Below the pieces are notes generated by a model, which was not told the DNA's origin, searched no databases, and saw nothing but the letters and a program-made list of their open reading frames with translations. Shown in pieces: positions 8,248 through 35,787 of a stretch of 36,849 bases of DNA. Location of the stretch: the IMG/VR virus record IMGVR_UViG_2778261087_000007. One strand, written 5' to 3'. Each line of letters begins with the position of its first letter. Within the stretch, counting starts at the first letter, position 1. Origin of the DNA: a virus (lineage: Duplodnaviria > Heunggongvirae > Uroviricota > Caudoviricetes). The translations under genes were made by a program, and so were the position numbers.

Positions 8248-8775
8248 TTATTTTGTTTCCGGTACAGCAGGCCAGTTAATTGCCTCAAAGTTATCCTTAT
8301 TATCAATGTCTGAAATATTCAGAGAATTAAGCTCACGGATATACATCATCCACTGAGTGAGTTTAAGCCTGTCATCGTCACTGATTATTCCAAGACTGAG
8401 CTCTGTCTGCCAGTCACTGGTAATACTCCTGGCTTCTGACAGTAACCTGTTGCGTTGTGTTTCAGCCTGTTGCCGGTAATCAACAGGAACCGGTAATATC
8501 TCACCATCCCTGTAATACCAGCGAGCCTCAATACAGAACCCTTCAGGAAGTTCGTCAACCTCCACAATGGAGAAACCTGCCGGATAGAGACGTGAAGCAT
8601 CCTCCGCCATGGAGTAAATCACTCCGGTGTCCGGATGAATGCACAATTTATATTTCTTCGTGAATTTATTGACAGAATCATAAAAATCCTGACCATCCTC
8701 ACTGCAGAAATACTGGATACCATCACCATAAGGCATGTCTTCAGGGTAATAGCGTGAAACGTTTCGGAGTTCCAT
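8248..8775 (-). CDS. tail fibre assembly chaperone (first copy)
   Basis: Start at MELRNVSRYY (ATG 8775, SD-like AAGGGA upstream); directly downstream of tail fibre 1. Confidence 0.7.
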   Translation of the reverse strand: MELRNVSRYYPEDMPYGDGIQYFCSEDGQDFYDSVNKFTKKYKLCIHPDTGVIYSMAEDASRLYPAGFSIVEVDELPEGFCIEARWYYRDGEILPVPVDYRQQAETQRNRLLSEARSITSDWQTELSLGIISDDDRLKLTQWMMYIRELNSLNISDIDNKDNFEAINWPAVPETK

Positions 8776-26625: not shown

Positions 26626-27053
26626 TGTGATGTTCTCCGGTGTTGTGTCGGCCTGGCGAATGAATTGCGTTGTGGTGAAAAGACCATTTCCGCCAGGGCG
26701 GCCTTGCGATTGACGACATTCAACATTCTGGCCAGCGCTGCGTTGTGTTTGTGTGCCTGTTCTTCGTGGTACTTCTGCATGATTTTCCCTGCAGGTGTGC
26801 ACGGCTCCGACTCCTCCGGCGAACGGCGGGTACGAACTGAGACAATCCAGCTCTTATGTTCATTTCCCGGCCGTCTGTTGAGTATATCTGTAATGGTGGT
26901 TTTCGTGGTGCGGTCAGGATTGACCACTGTGATTTCCAGTTCATCGCCGGGTTGTGGTCTCGTGGCAATGTTGTTCAGAGTCAGTAATGGCGTGCGCTGG
27001 CGCATCATGTTGTCAAAGCGCTGGCGCTGCATGGTGCAGTAAAAACGGGTCAT
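26622..27053 (-). CDS. hypothetical protein downstream of replication gene
   Basis: 143 aa; ATGA overlap with the replication gene stop. Confidence 0.5.
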   Translation of the reverse strand: MTRFYCTMQRQRFDNMMRQRTPLLTLNNIATRPQPGDELEITVVNPDRTTKTTITDILNRRPGNEHKSWIVSVRTRRSPEESEPCTPAGKIMQKYHEEQAHKHNAALARMLNVVNRKAALAEMVFSPQRNSFARPTQHRRTSQ

Positions 27054-29578
27054 TGTGGCCCCTCCGTTTTCTGTGCAGGGTTGAGCTCAATGCGGCGGGT
27101 GTTGTCGTTCCAGTACGCGGTGCGCCCGTCATCCAGGAGAACACGGGCCCCGTTACGCACGGAAATAATGGCTGCGTCAGGCAGTTGTACGCCCAGTGCA
27201 TCGAGTTCGCAGGTGATTTGTGCGGTGATGTGTGGCTCTGCTGTCAGTGCGACATCCACGCGAACGCCGTCAGTGGGCGCACTGATGCCGCCGTTTTTCA
27301 CGGTTTCTGTGTCAGGTGGCGGGTTTTTCAACTGCCGGGTGAGTTGTTTTCTCTGTACCGGTGTCAGCGACCTCAGCCATTCGGTTAAATCACCTTCCGG
27401 CAGGGTAAGTCGTTGCTCCCTGCGTCTGTCCTGTTGCCCTTCTGGCGTGGCATTACTGGTTAAATTCTGGTCATGGGGACAGTTATTGCCACGAGTCCAA
27501 GGGGCGACAAAGTCGCCCTCAACGTCAAAATCAGTTTCGCTGGCGCTGTCTTCACCTTCCGGCTTACGTCTGACCAGTTTCCAGGTGTCCGGATGGGTGC
27601 ATATGGTGTACTGCTCCCCGAGTGACGGTGCACGGACACCGTAAATACGTTGCGGAAATTCGCCGTAGTCGTTGGCCTCTTCGGCGGTTTCGTATGCGGT
27701 GCGGACCAGGTACGTGTTGCGGGGAATGAGTACACCACCCTGCCTGGTGATGTAGGTGGCAAAACATCCCACATCAGCGGCGGCCAGTATGGCGTCAATG
27801 TCTTCATTATCGAGGCGCTGTGGTGCCTTCGGGTTACGGGCTATCTGCCCGGCAAGACGGCGGAGTTCGCGCCATACCTGGCGTGGCGGGATACCGAAGA
27901 ACTGGAACTGGCGGATGCGGTGAAGGGTCGCCCAGCCGATGGCGTTCTCCACGGTTTCTGCCATTGTTTTGCCTGATTCCCTGTCTGCGTATGGTTTGCC
28001 GGTTTTCGGGTCATTCCCCATAAATACGCTGGCGTCCAGGTTCTTACCGATATAGGTCGCGATATAGCTTGCCGGGGTGCCTTTTGCTGGGTCGATTTTT
28101 TCGCATTTAAAACGCGGGGAGATATCATCACCCAGCTCTGCACGGTCCTCCCTGATGGCGGCGTTGCGCATGATTTCAGTGATACGGGCTTCGTTTTCCG
28201 GACTGGTGAATACCAGCATGTGCCAGTGCGGTGTGCCGTCGTGGTGAGGCTCCACGGTGCGTACACCGTACCAGCCCAGCCCGGCTTTGCTGATGGCCTT
28301 GCGGACGGCAGCGAAAAATCTGTAAACCAGGTAATCACTGGCATCGCGTACCGTTGCCCCGCAGAATTTCGGGTTCAGGCTGCCGTCATCGTTCACGCTG
28401 TGAAAACGGGAAGGGGCGGTGACGGTGACGAAAAACGCCACATCGCCGCGCGCTTCGGCGACCTGCTCCATTCCCCGGACGCAGGCCATCATCTCGTTGC
28501 GACGGTTGCGCGGATTGGCGAGTCCGGCCCAGTAGATATCCTCAAGGCTGAACCGCTCTCCCTCTTCGTTCTCGACATCCCAGGCTTTCAGAAAATCGCG
28601 GGTGCGCTGGCGTTTTTCGCGCCAGTCCAGTAACGCTTCATGGCTGATGTATACCGACTCCTTACGTGACACCAGACCTGCGGCGCGTAACAGCTCTTCC
28701 CGCCAGATGTCGCGAAGGTGTCTTAACTGACCGTTCCACCAGTTCGCGCAGGAAAGACGCATGACTGCACCCGGCACCTGTTCCAGGTCGGGGGCGGTGC
28801 GGCGGTCGGGTCTGATTTCCAGCGACGGCCAGCAGGGCGGGGTGACACCCAGTTTTAACGCCATATGTGCCAGCGGCTGGTAGGTCAGCAGCCAGGTGTA
28901 CAGGTCATCATCCCCCTTTCCGGTCCTTTTGATGGCCTCATCACATGCGCGCTCCAGTGCGGCGGAAAATGCGGTGGCGGTCAGGGTGGCAAGGCGCTGA
29001 ATGTCGTCGCGCTCCAGTTGCGGGAGTATCAGGAGTTCATCCAGTCGTTCGCGGGCAGCGGTGGCCTTAAATGCTGTAGTGGCAAACCGTTCATTCACCT
29101 GTCTGATGCGTTTCAGACGGGCGCGCAGCCCGTGGCGAACGAAGTTATCCGCTGCGTATGCGCTGTTGTTCTTAAGTTCTTTCTGACGGGCATCGTCCTG
29201 TTTGCGTCTGAAGAACGCCAGCCTGCGAATCAACGGTCCGGCGAGAAAGGCCGGAAGGGCGCGCAGCTCTGCCATGGCCTCGGATACCAGCGTGGGTGGG
29301 TTATCGCGTCTGTACCTGGCCAGCTTTTCCAGCCGTATCTGCCGCTCTTCGTCGTGATGAAGGTGCGAATTAATCTGCCTGCCTTTTTCTGTGCTTGTCA
29401 GGAAGACGACGGTTTCTTCATCCAGCCGGGCATTAATCCGGATGTCTTCGTTGATGTAGCTCTGAATTGCCCTGCGTAATGCCGTCGGCTTCTGTGGTAA
29501 CGCTCTGCCGAAGGTTTCCGGGTCGATAACGGGCAGTGGAGCGTTCCATGACCAGGCCCATTCGCGGTTGGTGTTCAT
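27050..29578 (-). CDS. rolling-circle replication initiator, gpA-like
   Basis: about 842 aa; HUH-type motif PHWHMLVF and paired tyrosines YIATYIGKN; ATG at 29578 preceded by GGGGAG (track start is GTG at 29587). Confidence 0.85.
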   Translation of the reverse strand: MNTNREWAWSWNAPLPVIDPETFGRALPQKPTALRRAIQSYINEDIRINARLDEETVVFLTSTEKGRQINSHLHHDEERQIRLEKLARYRRDNPPTLVSEAMAELRALPAFLAGPLIRRLAFFRRKQDDARQKELKNNSAYAADNFVRHGLRARLKRIRQVNERFATTAFKATAARERLDELLILPQLERDDIQRLATLTATAFSAALERACDEAIKRTGKGDDDLYTWLLTYQPLAHMALKLGVTPPCWPSLEIRPDRRTAPDLEQVPGAVMRLSCANWWNGQLRHLRDIWREELLRAAGLVSRKESVYISHEALLDWREKRQRTRDFLKAWDVENEEGERFSLEDIYWAGLANPRNRRNEMMACVRGMEQVAEARGDVAFFVTVTAPSRFHSVNDDGSLNPKFCGATVRDASDYLVYRFFAAVRKAISKAGLGWYGVRTVEPHHDGTPHWHMLVFTSPENEARITEIMRNAAIREDRAELGDDISPRFKCEKIDPAKGTPASYIATYIGKNLDASVFMGNDPKTGKPYADRESGKTMAETVENAIGWATLHRIRQFQFFGIPPRQVWRELRRLAGQIARNPKAPQRLDNEDIDAILAAADVGCFATYITRQGGVLIPRNTYLVRTAYETAEEANDYGEFPQRIYGVRAPSLGEQYTICTHPDTWKLVRRKPEGEDSASETDFDVEGDFVAPWTRGNNCPHDQNLTSNATPEGQQDRRREQRLTLPEGDLTEWLRSLTPVQRKQLTRQLKNPPPDTETVKNGGISAPTDGVRVDVALTAEPHITAQITCELDALGVQLPDAAIISVRNGARVLLDDGRTAYWNDNTRRIELNPAQKTEGPQ

Positions 29579-29583
29579 GGCGC

Positions 29584-29997
29584 TCACTCCCCGGCAGTTG
29601 CCCGTTGAAATGCGGCACGGTACAGCACAAGAAGGCGCCGGTATTCGTCAATAAAGCCTTCTGCCGTTTTAATCCCTTTCACTGCCACGCTGTGGGTTGT
29701 CATGTCCAGTACGAGCGCCATTTCTGACGATGACCAACTGATTACGCTGTGGTCGTGCCCGTTGATGTGGAACAGGCCCAGATTCAGGCTGTGATTCAGG
29801 TCTCTGACGTCAACACGGTAACGGTCATCAACGGTGAAGGAGAAATCACCTGATGTGGTGATACTGCTGGCTGCCTGTTTACAGGCGCGGCGGTAATAGT
29901 CATGCCAGTCATTGAGGCGGGAGGCGAGGTGTGGATCCACCGACCACATCCAGTTAAAAAAATCCTGAATATCTGAAAGTTCCTTAACGTTCTTCAT
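29584..29997 (-). CDS. hypothetical protein upstream of replication gene
   Basis: 137-aa ORF whose stop overlaps the replication gene start region. Confidence 0.5.
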   Translation of the reverse strand: MKNVKELSDIQDFFNWMWSVDPHLASRLNDWHDYYRRACKQAASSITTSGDFSFTVDDRYRVDVRDLNHSLNLGLFHINGHDHSVISWSSSEMALVLDMTTHSVAVKGIKTAEGFIDEYRRLLVLYRAAFQRATAGE

Positions 29998-30065
29998 GTG
30001 AACCTCCGGTAACAGACGTGCGGAAGCCTCCCGCGTACGGGTGCGGGATGGCTTCAGGATGTTGT

Positions 30066-30293
30066 TTAGTGGTGGTGTTGCTGGTTGATAAGGTTCTGCA
30101 GTTCCGCGAGATCATCCGCCAGGTAGCTGAAAACAGCGGCACAGTAACGGTTTGACAGGGCGTGAGTGCGCTCATGCAGCATATTGATGTGCATGATTTG
30201 CGCGACGCGTGATGCGCGGAAAAGTCTGCGGTTGATTTCGGTGCGGATGTGAAGGCGCTCAGCGCGGGCGCGCTGTTGTTTGCGGTTTGCCAT
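30066..30293 (-). CDS. small basic hypothetical protein
   Basis: 75 aa, Arg/Lys-rich N-terminus, ATG with GAGG about 9 nt upstream. Confidence 0.45.
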   Translation of the reverse strand: MANRKQQRARAERLHIRTEINRRLFRASRVAQIMHINMLHERTHALSNRYCAAVFSYLADDLAELQNLINQQHHH

Positions 30294-30470
30294 GGTGTGG
30301 CCTCGTATGTAGTAAGTTTTAAAAACTCACCATCCAGAGCTGCGAAACTGTGGGTGGCGAGACGTACGAGGTTCGCAGTACCGGCTACATACGATCCCGG
30401 CCCGACCGAAGTCGGCCCCGTACGCCCCGCCATAATTCTGATGCGAAAAAGACGTGGCAATGCAGTACGC

Positions 30471-30493
30471 ACAAAAAAACCGCTGGCGCGGTT
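30471..30493 (-). terminator. intrinsic terminator downstream of dam
   Basis: On the minus strand: stem accgc/gcggt with 4-nt loop followed by 7 T. Confidence 0.6.
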
Positions 30494-30581
30494 GTGCGCG
30501 TATGTAGTCAGCAGGCTGCGAAACCCGGCACCCGTTTTATAAGGTGCAGCGGGAATGTAACCCGACTGATTACGGCATGGC

Positions 30582-30631
30582 AAGCGGTTTTTTTGTGTGT
30601 GCATGGCGATTACTCAGTCCGGTAGCAGTTC
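30582..30631. repeat. direct repeat copy A (50 bp) spanning the dam stop
   Basis: aagcggtttttttgtgtgtgcatggcgattactcagtccggtagcagttc; identical to copy B except T7 versus T5. Confidence 0.85.
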
Positions 30632-31629
30632 ACGGAGTACGGCATCAGCGGTTGTTCTGCGGTGGAAGAGGTAAACATCGCGCTGTAAGTTGTATCTCCC
30701 GTCACCGTGCCGCAGTCCGGACAGTAGCCGCCGCCATGGCGACCACAGGCGTCGCACTGTCTCAGGGTGGCGATAACCTCCGGTGCTGGTTTTCGGGTTT
30801 TTGCGCCAACGCTTCGCGGTGCCTGGATGCGGTTCATCCGGTAGCCCTGATAAATGCGCCGTGCTTCCGGTGTGTCGGAGCCGGAAATGGTTATGCTGGT
30901 CATTCCACCTGTTTCCTGTGAAAGACGGTCAAGCGCTGCTCTCAGGCGAACGTGTTCGTCCTTCGTGAAGGGTTTTTCGTAGGCGGTGAAATTGTCCCAG
31001 CCACTGAATGACAGGTAAGGGGGATCGCAGTACACGCAAAGCGTACTACCTATGCTGAACAGGTGACTGGCAGTGTTCAGCGTTTTCTGAAAATCGCCAT
31101 GAACAAGCAGTGTTCTGGTGCTGTTTGCCTTGTCTGCAAATGCGCGGATTTCCCGTTCAGGGAAGTAGGGAGCCCGGTAGCCACCGAATGGGACATTAAA
31201 ATCCCCTTTTTCATTCACCCGGTACAGGCCATTAAAGCAGTGCCGGTTGAGGTATAAAAACATGGCGGCCAGCCGTAATTCGCGACGGTCGCTTATTCCC
31301 GTGCTCAGGAATGCATGATTCTCTGCATTAAAGGTGTTACGGATAGCGAGATAGTCAGTCCTGTTATTGTGTTCCAGGAACAGGTCTTTTGCTTCGTTGA
31401 TCAGACAGTCAGTGTTGTCCCGTGCTGCCCGACAGAAATTAATCAGTGCACCATTGGAATCACCCAGGATGTATCGGCTGTAACTGGTGTTCATGAATAC
31501 CGATGCGCCACCCACGAACGGCTCAACCAGGCAGTCCGCTTCTGGCAGATGCGCCTTCAGTGTGTTCATGATGCGGCTTTTCCCGCCCACCCATTTCAGC
31601 GGTGTGCCGGATAACAGTTCTTTGCTCAT
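30610..31629 (-). CDS. dam: DNA adenine methyltransferase (Dam family) with Cys-rich C-terminal extension
   Basis: 339 aa; N-terminal PLKWVGGK, FVGGASVF and catalytic DPPY motifs; C-terminal CDACGRHGGGYCPDCG zinc-ribbon-like segment; good SD AAGAGG. Confidence 0.85.
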   Translation of the reverse strand: MSKELLSGTPLKWVGGKSRIMNTLKAHLPEADCLVEPFVGGASVFMNTSYSRYILGDSNGALINFCRAARDNTDCLINEAKDLFLEHNNRTDYLAIRNTFNAENHAFLSTGISDRRELRLAAMFLYLNRHCFNGLYRVNEKGDFNVPFGGYRAPYFPEREIRAFADKANSTRTLLVHGDFQKTLNTASHLFSIGSTLCVYCDPPYLSFSGWDNFTAYEKPFTKDEHVRLRAALDRLSQETGGMTSITISGSDTPEARRIYQGYRMNRIQAPRSVGAKTRKPAPEVIATLRQCDACGRHGGGYCPDCGTVTGDTTYSAMFTSSTAEQPLMPYSVNCYRTE

Positions 31630-31676: not shown

Positions 31677-31724
31677 AAGCGGTTTTTGTGTGTGCATGGC
31701 GATTACTCAGTCCGGTAGCAGTTC
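31677..31724. repeat. direct repeat copy B (48 bp) spanning the stop of the gene upstream of dam
   Basis: Same sequence as copy A with a 2-nt shorter T-run. Confidence 0.85.
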
Positions 31725-32261
31725 GTACAGCACAATGTCGTCGGCAGTGCGGCGGCGACTGTAAAGAAGATATGCTGTGTTAGTGGTCGCTTTTATTTGC
31801 AGTGTGTGATTGATGTGTTTTGCTATCGCGGCGAATGTCATACACTGTTCATCACGTAGTTCTGTTACCAGTTCCACCAGGCGATCGCTGTATCTGGTCA
31901 GGTGGTGCAGATCTCCGCATTTCTGCAGTCTGTAACCACGTTTACTCAGGTGTTCCTGTACTGTGCGACGGGTACATCCCACCATGACTGCCATTTCCTG
32001 CGCTGTTCTGGTGTGACGGTTTCTGATGAGAAAATTGATTTCTTCTCTGCTCAGCGTCTTTCTCTTGCGACCAATTAATCCACGATCACGTAAAACACGA
32101 ATTCTGTGCATAACTGCGCTGCGGGTGCGTTGAATTCGTTCAGCCATCTGGTATGTGCTGTTTTCCTGATAAAGCGAGGTAAGCATCTCGTCTTCCTGCC
32201 GTGTCCATGGTTTCACGTGCGCAGGGGCTTTGCCTGGTATCCCCATTGGTTGAAGTATCAT
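31707..32261 (-). CDS. putative DNA-binding protein with repeated HTH-like segments
   Basis: 184 aa; three segments of pattern W..E(D/E)..L...... followed by R/K-rich helix (KPWTRQEDEMLTSLY..., LSREEINFLIRNRH..., TRYSDRLVELVTEL...). Confidence 0.45.
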   Translation of the reverse strand: MILQPMGIPGKAPAHVKPWTRQEDEMLTSLYQENSTYQMAERIQRTRSAVMHRIRVLRDRGLIGRKRKTLSREEINFLIRNRHTRTAQEMAVMVGCTRRTVQEHLSKRGYRLQKCGDLHHLTRYSDRLVELVTELRDEQCMTFAAIAKHINHTLQIKATTNTAYLLYSRRRTADDIVLYELLPD

Positions 32262-35331: not shown

Positions 35332-35445
35332 TTGTTATCCTCTTGCGTTGGTGCGCTTATCGCGCCTTGTTATGGTTTGTTTTGGTTTGTTTTGGTTTGT
35401 AAAGATAATCGTACGGTTATCTTTGTGCGAGAGGTTAATACTCAA
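35332..35445. promoter_or_regulatory. immunity switch region (divergent promoters and operators)
   Basis: Three tandem tggtttgttt units (35373-35402) and near-perfect palindrome GATAATCGTACGGTTATC (35404-35421) between the divergent cox-like and C genes. Confidence 0.55.
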
Positions 35446-35787
35446 ATGGTTATCTTGTCAATAGACTATGCGGAAAAGTTGCGTCAAATACGTAAGGCAG
35501 AGGGGCTAACACAAAAGCAGTTTGCTGATATCACAGGACTATCTTTAGCAGCCATAAGGAACTATGAATCAGGGCAAAAAAGCGCCAGAGCAAAAATCGT
35601 TGAGACTGTTTTGCAGGTAGATCGATTCGAAAAGTATATGTTGTGGTTATTAAAGGATAAAACGCTACCTGCCGCCGGGCAAATAGCCCCGGCTCTCTCT
35701 CTTGATGGCTCTTCTCAGTCGGAGGGCGATCAGGCTTCAACCGACGCTATCCAAAAATCACCCCGATCAGGCCGCAATGCTGGCTGA
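35446..35787 (+). CDS. immunity repressor C (P2 C-like)
   Basis: 113 aa; LTQKQFADITGLSLAAIRNYESGQ HTH and FEKYMLWLLKDKTLPAAGQIAPAL closely parallel P2 C (..YYESG.., ..FTKYTLWFMTNQ..GQIAPAL). Confidence 0.8.
   Translation: MVILSIDYAEKLRQIRKAEGLTQKQFADITGLSLAAIRNYESGQKSARAKIVETVLQVDRFEKYMLWLLKDKTLPAAGQIAPALSLDGSSQSEGDQASTDAIQKSPRSGRNAG

Follow-up and report, generated by a model that had tools for sequence, protein, structure and literature searches.

We examined a 316-bp spacer (positions 30294–30609) lying between a dam methyltransferase gene and a replication operon in a viral DNA of 36,849 nucleotides, IMG/VR record IMGVR_UViG_2778261087_000007 (hereafter the window, meaning this whole stretch at its full length). 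The spacer is read here, at a probability of about 0.72, as the control region of a type-specific RNA immunity module of the kind described for phages P4 and P1, borne by a P88-like prophage (Xuanwuvirus, P2 family). Two RNA elements are found within it on the minus strand, an IsrK/SeqA-like leader and a C4/CI-type antisense RNA, and the first translated gene after them encodes a 75-aa protein of the epsilon (derepression, or anti-repressor) type; most likely, the arrangement is an RNA switch by which a P2-like prophage would hold both its anti-repressor gene and its replication gene silent.

Results

Two structured RNAs within the spacer

The limits of the gap are exact, the dam stop codon lying at 30610 and the ATG of the next minus-strand open reading frame (ORF) at 30293; these boundaries, together with the Pfam matches of dam and of the replication protein (Phage_GPA), agree with the original prediction of a spacer between dam and a replication operon. 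All genes neighboring the gap lie on the minus strand, and every feature listed for the gap reads likewise (Table 1). The whole window was scanned against Rfam at gathering thresholds and exactly two matches were obtained, both on the minus strand and both inside the gap: a C4/CI-type antisense RNA and, upstream of it, an IsrK/SeqA-like leader. Of three roles previously offered for the spacer (regulatory RNA, promoter region, origin-associated element), the first was borne out by these two curated families, whose interaction sites are the repeats that had been seen there.

The C4 match is full length (model positions 1–87 of 87) and resolves into a 17-bp closing helix, a GC hairpin, a hairpin with a 12-nt loop and an 8-nt joining strand. 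The GC-rich hairpin noted earlier at about 30398–30420 was located within that stretch, at about 30402–30415, and is helix 2 of the match. The recognition segments of the RNA are b′ (CGUAUGUAG, 30385–30393), in the 12-nt loop of the third helix, and a′ (CUGCGAA, 30372–30378), in the joining strand. The C4 fold had a z-score of −4.4. When the family structure was laid over 14 diverse homologs, 99.7% of the cells for its 27 pairs were paired, and 13 of the 27 pairs had changed on both sides (compensatory changes), a level reached by 0 of 500 shuffles, with slid controls at 34–45%. Recurrent G-U pairs fix the strand, and the transcribed strand of C4 is therefore the minus strand. A CC dinucleotide in the 3′ tail, after the closing helix, was invariant in 14 of 14 homologs and is compatible with an RNase P substrate.

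Three hairpins were predicted for the IsrK-like leader, and they were predicted as well for diverse homologs despite differing stem sequences; the b1 target falls in the single-stranded linker of the leader. The clear terminator that had been seen at 30471–30493 is the terminator of IsrK, and the terminator scan detected it on the minus strand only.

Table 1. Positions in the window of the two RNAs, their recognition sites, the candidate promoter and the adjoining genes.
Feature	Position	Strand	Match or remark
Candidate leader promoter (P4 PLE equivalent)	30554..30583	-	Consensus scan
IsrK/SeqA-like leader	30473..30547	-	Rfam RF01394 isrK, 62.8 bits (gathering threshold 50), E 2.6e-11
IsrK hairpin 1	30528-30547	-	Fold prediction
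IsrK hairpin 2, a1 in loop	30512-30527	-	Fold prediction
a1 target, core UUCGCAG	30516..30522	-	Complementary to C4 a′; within gctgcgaaac copy 30515-30524
b1 target, CUACAUACG	30499..30507	-	Repeat I18; complementary to C4 b′ loop; equals cgtatgtag
IsrK Rho-independent terminator	Stem 30478-30493, U-run to 30471	-	Terminator scan
C4/CI-type antisense RNA	30350..30437	-	Rfam RF01695, 79.8 bits (gathering threshold 45), E 2.9e-14
a2 target, core UUCGCAG	30340..30346	-	Few nt downstream of C4; within gctgcgaaac copy 30339-30348
b2 target, CUACAUACGA	30301..30312 (b2 30312-30303)	-	Repeat I10; complementary to C4 b′
Epsilon-type derepression (anti-repressor) gene, 75 aa	30066..30293	-	Pfam PF25738 Derepression, 30.7 bits (cut-off 27)
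Eta-like ORF, 206 codons	29984..30604	-	Pfam Phage_ASH (PF10554), 26.6 bits (cut-off 26), residues 16-105
137-aa ORF	29584-29997	-	PHROG 3237, function unknown
Replication gene A homolog, 845 aa	27050-29587	-	Pfam Phage_GPA
dam, D12-class methyltransferase	30610..31629	-	Pfam MethyltransfD12, E 7e-51

Recognition sites and their pairing in relatives

Each recognition segment of C4 is matched by one site in the leader (a1, b1) and one site downstream (a2, b2). Both repeats of the original prediction are present and fall on these sites: the inverted pair ctacatacg/cgtatgtag (30385–30393 and 30499–30507; repeat I18) corresponds to b′ and b1, and the two gctgcgaaac copies (30339–30348 and 30515–30524; direct repeat D11) hold a2 and a1. 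Neither the strand nor the conserved eta-like frame over the spacer had been recognized, and two other sites had been missed, namely a third occurrence of the first motif and a segment complementary to the second. The third copy (CGTATGTAG at 30304–30312; repeat I10, 30303–30312) abuts the Shine-Dalgarno sequence of the 75-aa ORF, such that b2 overlaps by 2 nt the GAGG (30304–30301) ahead of the AUG at 30293 (CUACAUACGAGGCCACACCAUG); the complement of gctgcgaaac lies at 30372–30378, inside C4. The b2-AGG-AUG layout is found also in P4 (at kil) and in lambdoid modules. Short-duplex energies, compared with those of shuffled targets, were −13.8 kcal/mol for b′-b2 (reached by 3 of 1000 shuffles) and −10.0 kcal/mol for a′-a2 (reached by 8 of 1000).

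Relatives were sought by scanning with an epsilon alignment. The scan of GTDB genomes returned 4 loci, and relatives were therefore taken from IMG/VR, where 80 loci were obtained, all with the module; with P88, a related record and an E. albertii genome these made 83 loci, or 57 distinct sequences. IMG/VR contig L008 (IMGVR_UViG_2737471860_000010) was identical to the window across the module. Among the 57 distinct relatives, mean column entropy was 0.84 in the six recognition sites vs 0.22 elsewhere in 30294–30600, and 6 a-types and 15 b′ loop variants occurred in 23 combinations; that is, the a and b specificities assort independently.

Pairing was counted as contiguous pairs with G-U allowed. 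Cognate b′-b1 pairing ran to 9 contiguous bp in 56 of the 57 relatives and cognate a′-a1 pairing to 7–8 contiguous bp in 55; for the downstream targets every relative retained complementarity, with 7–8 bp for a′-a2 (57/57) and at least 8 bp for b′-b2 (57/57). Non-cognate combinations had a mean pairing of 4.7–5.9. The covariance comparison across related prophages, which had been put forward as a check, accordingly came out in favor of conserved pairing: the C4 helices and the site pairings are both conserved through sequence change. P4-like, lambdoid (Stx2, cdtI, 1720a-02) and Citrobacter modules had the same layout with other sequences again.

Some modules are natural hybrids. In L018 (224–421) neither a1 nor b1 matches the C4 RNA of the same locus, and a2 and b2 do; in the lambdoid L088 (phage 1720a-02, 1501–1689) and L091 (Stx2_EH2201, 1515–1703) b1 is unmatched to its own C4. 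Likely these arose by recombination between IsrK and C4, and the hybrid IsrK RNAs could be decoys for the C4 RNA of a different phage. The a′ strand of the window (GUACUGCGAACC, 30370–30381) is identical to that in the C4 RNA of Stx2_EH2201, the b′ differing.

A candidate promoter ahead of the leader

A sigma-70-like site ends 7 nt before the IsrK 5′ end, the predicted leader start being at about 30547. It consists of a −35 hexamer TTGCCA (30583–30578), an 18-nt spacer and a −10 hexamer TACATT (30559–30554), and matches the consensus at 9 of 12 positions. Both hexamers were kept in the 57 relatives, even where the spacer between them has been replaced, and the P4 promoter PLE (TTGCCT, 18 nt, TATAGT) occupies the same position relative to the P4 isrK match. 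The site is thus suggestive of a leader promoter, and the second role offered for the spacer, that of a promoter region, is probably right as well.

A second promoter-like site (30460..30432, minus strand; TTGCCA, 17 nt, AATTAT) is probably a chance match: since its −10 overlaps the conserved C4 5′ leader, transcription initiated from it would yield a C4 with a shortened closing helix. In lambdoid modules the spacer here is only 24 nt long.

A 21-nt inverted repeat (30467–30487/30580–30600; I3), complementary at 19 of 21 positions with 15 nt perfect, joins the A-rich sequence just upstream of the −35 hexamer to the IsrK terminator, at its 3′ arm and U-tract. All P88-like and Citrobacter modules have it (15 nt perfect), and P4 and lambdoid modules lack it; within the P88 group it is invariant and hence without covariation. 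I3 could be an UP-like element, or an antiterminator letting transcripts from dam read through.

The epsilon-type gene and the repressor

The first gene translated after C4 is the 75-aa gene, whose product has 32% identity to P4 epsilon over 50 residues (E 9e-8) and matches PHROG 3688 (E 1e-40). Its variable columns among relatives numbered 24, 22 and 47 by codon position; variation thus falls on its own third positions, as expected of a genuine coding gene, and the epsilon-like protein is therefore what is under selection there. The mRNA over this gene is C-rich and G-poor (C-over-G excess 0.24–0.39). The 75-aa gene would be the primary target of the C4 RNA.

The repressor of the window (35332–35787, plus strand) is of the P2 C type and 34% identical to P2 C, the protein that is bound and inactivated by P4 E (epsilon) (PMC2995052). 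Downstream of the epsilon-like gene, the 137-aa ORF and the gene A homolog (27050..29997) are the further genes of the transcription unit of the module, and the gene order epsilon-like ORF, 137-aa ORF, gene A is the same in P88 and in a Citrobacter phage.

An open frame across the module

The only ORF across the spacer (29984–30604) had been judged non-protein-like. Its low-complexity sequence agrees with that judgment, but the ORF matches Phage_ASH and its frame is kept open in relatives. The Phage_ASH match covers exactly the spacer with a borderline score; P4 eta (orf199; L003 8168–8767, minus strand) scored 82.4 bits against the same model. The eta-like frame begins ahead of the candidate promoter, with an ATG 5 nt beyond the dam stop; it traverses IsrK, C4 and, in another frame, the whole epsilon-like gene (the two ATGs being 311 nt apart), and its stop lies 8–11 nt into the 137-aa ORF (11 in the window).

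An ORF running from an ATG upstream of the IsrK 5′ end to beyond the epsilon ATG was kept in 54 of the 57 relatives, and it was in the frame of the window in 52, despite three different upstream junctions; the relatives are closely related, such that these and the following frame counts are not independent events. The distance from the IsrK 5′ end to the epsilon ATG was 254 nt in most relatives and 257 nt in five, with three off by +2, −2 and +4 nt. Distinct variants of the variable sites contained 0 stops in the eta-like frame vs 16 and 30 in the other two. Over 47 distinct epsilon-like genes the eta-like frame had 0 stops, vs 2–5 in the other alternative frame; synonymous recoding gave a stop-free eta-like frame over the epsilon-like gene in about 5–7% of trials. 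What is conserved of the eta-like frame is its openness, not its sequence. In some relatives the frame is extended N-terminally (374–378 codons); no Pfam domain was found in the extension, which was treated as a chance upstream opening.

Forti et al. (1999), as summarized in PMC10111431, report that P4 eta starts upstream of PLE and that translation of eta on transcripts from the upstream late promoter prevents the immunity-specific termination. Phage_ASH (PF10554) is in effect the translation of the seqA-CI-seqC RNA region (P4 eta), and the family may be conserved less for a protein function than through RNA constraints and the need for the frame to stay open. The epsilon-like ORF ends 68 nt before the start of the 137-aa ORF, and the 137-aa gene may be translationally coupled to the eta-like frame.

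Comparison with known immunity systems

The isrK and C4 families correspond to seqA and CI of P4, and the pair has been noted in P1, P7, N15, lambdoid prophages and phage-inducible chromosomal islands (PICIs) (PMC3632133, PMC10111431, PMC4825925). In P4 the C4 match fell on the CI RNA (8420–8507) and the isrK match on the PLE leader seqA (8615–8692), followed by epsilon and the replication gene; in the P2 early region neither a C4 nor an isrK match was found. The two RNAs of the P4 immunity region thus have the same order and strand as in the window, and the P4 order of PLE promoter, seqA, CI, seqC, epsilon and replication gene recurs here, with the candidate promoter in the place of PLE, directly before the leader and with the same 18-nt spacer. 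Shared as well are the intrinsic-type terminator after the equivalents of a1 and b1, a2 with the b2-AGG-AUG layout, and the eta-family (Phage_ASH) frame running from upstream of the internal promoter across the RNAs. The full P4 order is PLE, seqA, cI RNA, seqC, kil/eta, epsilon, orf151, alpha; no similarity was found between the 137-aa ORF and P4 orf151. P4 is a satellite with an alpha primase, whereas the window belongs to a P2-like phage with gpA (a rolling-circle nickase) and with C, Cox and Int of the P2 type. The IsrK-to-C4 spacer is 35 nt in the window vs 107 nt in P4, and the recognition sequences differ from those of P4, which makes the window a different immunity type.

In immI of P1 and P7, ordered a1 b1, c4, a2 b2, icd, ant, the antisense RNA is likewise of the C4 family, a′ and b′ are each matched by one upstream and one downstream target, the downstream targets together cover the ribosome site of the first, small ORF, and the cargo is an anti-repressor. 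The icd and ant genes have no counterpart in the window, P1 being compared by its description: the 75-aa and 137-aa ORFs matched only Derepression and families of unknown function (Pfam, PHROGs). Specificity variants give heteroimmunity, as between P1 and P7 (PMC12197685); against these classical two, 23 specificity combinations were found here.

The Gifsy-1 prophage of Salmonella (isrK-orf45-anrP-isrJ) is comparable: its IsrK leader has a promoter of its own and a leaky terminator, a processed RNA (STnc1160) comes downstream, and a small first ORF gates an anti-repressor-like gene. It differs in being lambdoid, in that AnrP is unrelated to epsilon, and in its published mechanism, which is activation by a short IsrK; in the window the C4 part is complete, and it is its pairing with a2/b2 that is conserved best. 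The same Rfam pair, with the same a/b logic, is found inside 'antirepressor' (Bro-network) genes of lambdoid Stx and cdtI phages and of PICIs (PMC10111431). The lambdoid modules also lie upstream of replication genes, between cII and O; unlike the module of the window, they are within a long annotated anti-repressor ORF, have a 24-nt IsrK-to-C4 spacer, and the first ORF after b2 (MAT...) is kil-like. The principle is already established for P1, P7 and P4; in the literature searched, no description of an IsrK/C4 module in P2-like phages was found, which is not proof of absence, and to our knowledge the P2-like context is undescribed.

Distribution

The closest phage records were P88-like Peduoviridae (Xuanwuvirus), complete genomes with 88–95% identity across the module, in which the gene order is derepression protein, hypothetical protein, replication endonuclease. 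The module with the epsilon-like gene is very common in E. coli: of 5426 complete genomes, 1153 (about a fifth) carry it with an identity of at least 80%, in up to 4 places per genome; the best match among them was only 92% identical, and the lineage of the window is therefore not in that genome collection. Public labels over the stretch are 'hypothetical protein' or 'ash family protein' (the latter from the Prokaryotic Genome Annotation Pipeline, PGAP, in some genomes).

The dam junction

The dam gene is flanked by a duplicated junction (30590–30662 and 31683–31755), of which 42 nt are exact (30590–30631 = 31683–31724). The duplicated unit consists of the 3′ end of a 184-aa helix-turn-helix (HTH) gene and GTAATCGCCATGCACACACAAAAA..CCGCTT, and stands before dam and again at the dam end, so that the last dam codons are read from the repeat in another frame. 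The upstream copy of the dam-flanking repeat breaks off within the −35 hexamer of the candidate promoter. The HTH-gene homolog of Citrobacter phage Shae_phiSM adjoins the module directly. Because of the duplicated junction and of this direct adjoining in Shae_phiSM, dam looks like a cassette inserted there.

Discussion

A proposed mechanism

From these data and by comparison with P4 and P1 we infer the following course of transcription, processing, translational block, Rho polarity, anti-repressor activity and override by translation. The internal, probably constitutive promoter would start the leader at about 30547, and most transcripts would end at the intrinsic terminator (30493–30471) to give an IsrK/SeqA-like RNA of about 75 nt that displays a1 and b1. 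Transcripts that read through would carry the C4/CI-like RNA, which RNase P, on the precedent of P1 C4 and P4 CI, would excise to leave a stable product of about 77 nt. The b′ loop and a′ strand of C4 would then pair with a2 and b2 just downstream; as b2 overlaps the Shine-Dalgarno sequence of the epsilon-type gene, this pairing would block its translation, and the untranslated C-rich mRNA would be open to Rho, such that the 137-aa gene and gene A would remain unexpressed from the internal promoter. In the lysogen the anti-repressor of a P2-C-type repressor would thereby be kept silent, and C4 would work likewise in trans against superinfecting phages that share its a/b type, which would make the immunity type-specific. 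In the lytic cycle, transcription from the early promoter would come through dam and the transcripts would carry the start of the eta-like frame; ribosomes translating that frame over the module would, as with eta in P4, override both termination and C4. The least certain step is the role of a1 and b1, which may be a cis aid to termination (as in P4) or a decoy or activator (as in Gifsy-1).

Several observations weigh against this interpretation. Minimum-free-energy co-folding of C4 with the ribosome-site region (ddG 0.0) or with IsrK gave no specific intermolecular pairing, and with IsrK a non-cognate C4 scored as well as the cognate one; the minimum-free-energy model cannot represent loop-target contacts and folds the b′ hairpin unlike the family consensus, and the short-duplex energies vs shuffles were used in its place. 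There are natural hybrids in which a1 and b1, or b1, are unmatched to their own C4, which bears on the uncertain role of a1 and b1. The gene next after CI in P4 is kil, which shares the eta frame; in the window it is epsilon-like and in another frame, and details taken from P4 may not transfer. At the two P2 C positions implicated in binding E (Thr67, Ile70) the repressor of the window has Lys and Thr, replacements that would be consistent with a specificity peculiar to this pair of repressor and anti-repressor. The scores for Derepression and Phage_ASH exceed their cut-offs by little. Finally, in the Gifsy-1 work the short IsrK RNA activates rather than represses.

Alternative explanations

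The last point belongs to an alternative that we consider unlikely though by some way the strongest of those weighed, namely a switch of the Gifsy-1 type that acts as an induction trigger. In such a switch the read-through mRNA would silence itself in cis, with a1/b1 or the C4 segment paired inside the molecule so that the ribosome site is hidden, and the short IsrK RNA would be a trans activator (an anti-antisense RNA or C4 sponge) that turns on the epsilon-like gene under particular conditions. The IsrK family match in the window speaks for this explanation, and cis-silencing with IsrK activation is what Hershko-Shalev et al. described at isrK-orf45-anrP, where processed STnc1160 lies downstream of IsrK. 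It is consistent also with the geometry of IsrK, decoy-like in having a1 in a loop and b1 in single strand, and with the fold predicted for the 263-nt read-through RNA, which pairs a1/b1 with a′/b′ in cis (−106 kcal/mol, z −4.4). However, the C4 part outscores IsrK and is a complete C4/CI RNA of the RNase P type, which in P4 and P1 is a trans-acting repressor; and a2 and b2 were complementary to C4 in all 57 relatives while a1 and b1 were occasionally mismatched, which makes pairing of C4 with a2/b2 the more constrained interaction. The explanation overlaps with repression by C4 as proposed above, from which it differs in the effector RNA and in the sign of regulation.

It is very improbable that the protein of 29984–30604 (Ash/Eta) is the functional product with an activity of its own, the RNA features being by-products of coding constraint. 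The Phage_ASH match, retention of the open frame by 54 of 57 relatives, the lack of stops from it at the variable sites, and the PGAP label 'ash family protein' speak for it; but variation is organized as RNA complementarity among six sites and not by codon position, with compensatory and G-U changes in the helices, and the predicted protein is of low complexity and poorly conserved, above all over the epsilon-like gene, where variation falls on second codon positions of the eta-like frame. The Phage_ASH model spans exactly seqA-CI-seqC of P4, which fits a role for translation itself and not for what it makes, in line with the published account of P4 eta.

A plain operon junction or origin element (a dam terminator, a replication promoter or part of an origin, with no RNA regulator) can be dismissed for practical purposes, for although the gap has terminator-like and promoter-like sites and lies a short way ahead of the replication gene, two full-length curated RNA matches and six co-varying sites are found in it, and its terminator follows the candidate promoter instead of standing directly after dam. 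The purely protein-coding and plain operon-junction readings were both rejected. The last of the roles first offered for the spacer, an origin-associated element, was not upheld: the gap, with a GC content of 50–65%, has no iterons or other tandem repeats, and the P2 nick site lies within gene A.

A possible second layer of immunity

P2-family phages are helpers for P4-type satellites. We tentatively propose, as a less probable extension of C4-mediated repression, that in P88-like members of this family the complete P4-style cassette (IsrK/SeqA, C4/CI, eta-like frame, epsilon-type anti-repressor) would be a second, RNA-based and type-specific layer of immunity over the C/Cox switch, gating both self-derepression and gene A. 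The six sites would evolve under three constraints at once, namely two sets of RNA-RNA complementarity and an open overlapping frame, and at least 23 immunity types would result. Since the same module, with some identical recognition sequences, occurs in satellites and lambdoid phages, helpers, satellites and unrelated prophages might repress or decoy the anti-repressors of one another through shared or hybrid a/b types, and the natural hybrids with mismatched a1/b1 or b1 would fit such cross-repression or decoying.

On the reading favored here, a stretch that has been unannotated or mis-annotated becomes a defined regulatory module, with two RNA genes that protein labels had hidden. The region is a clean example of a sequence meeting RNA pairing and an open reading frame at once, and the catalog of co-varying a and b sites is a natural mutagenesis data set for the interaction of C4 with its targets. 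For P88-like prophages, the module suggests that induction can proceed through an anti-repressor under RNA control and that there is a second immunity, specific to type, which would bear on prophage induction, superinfection exclusion and the compatibility of helpers with satellites.

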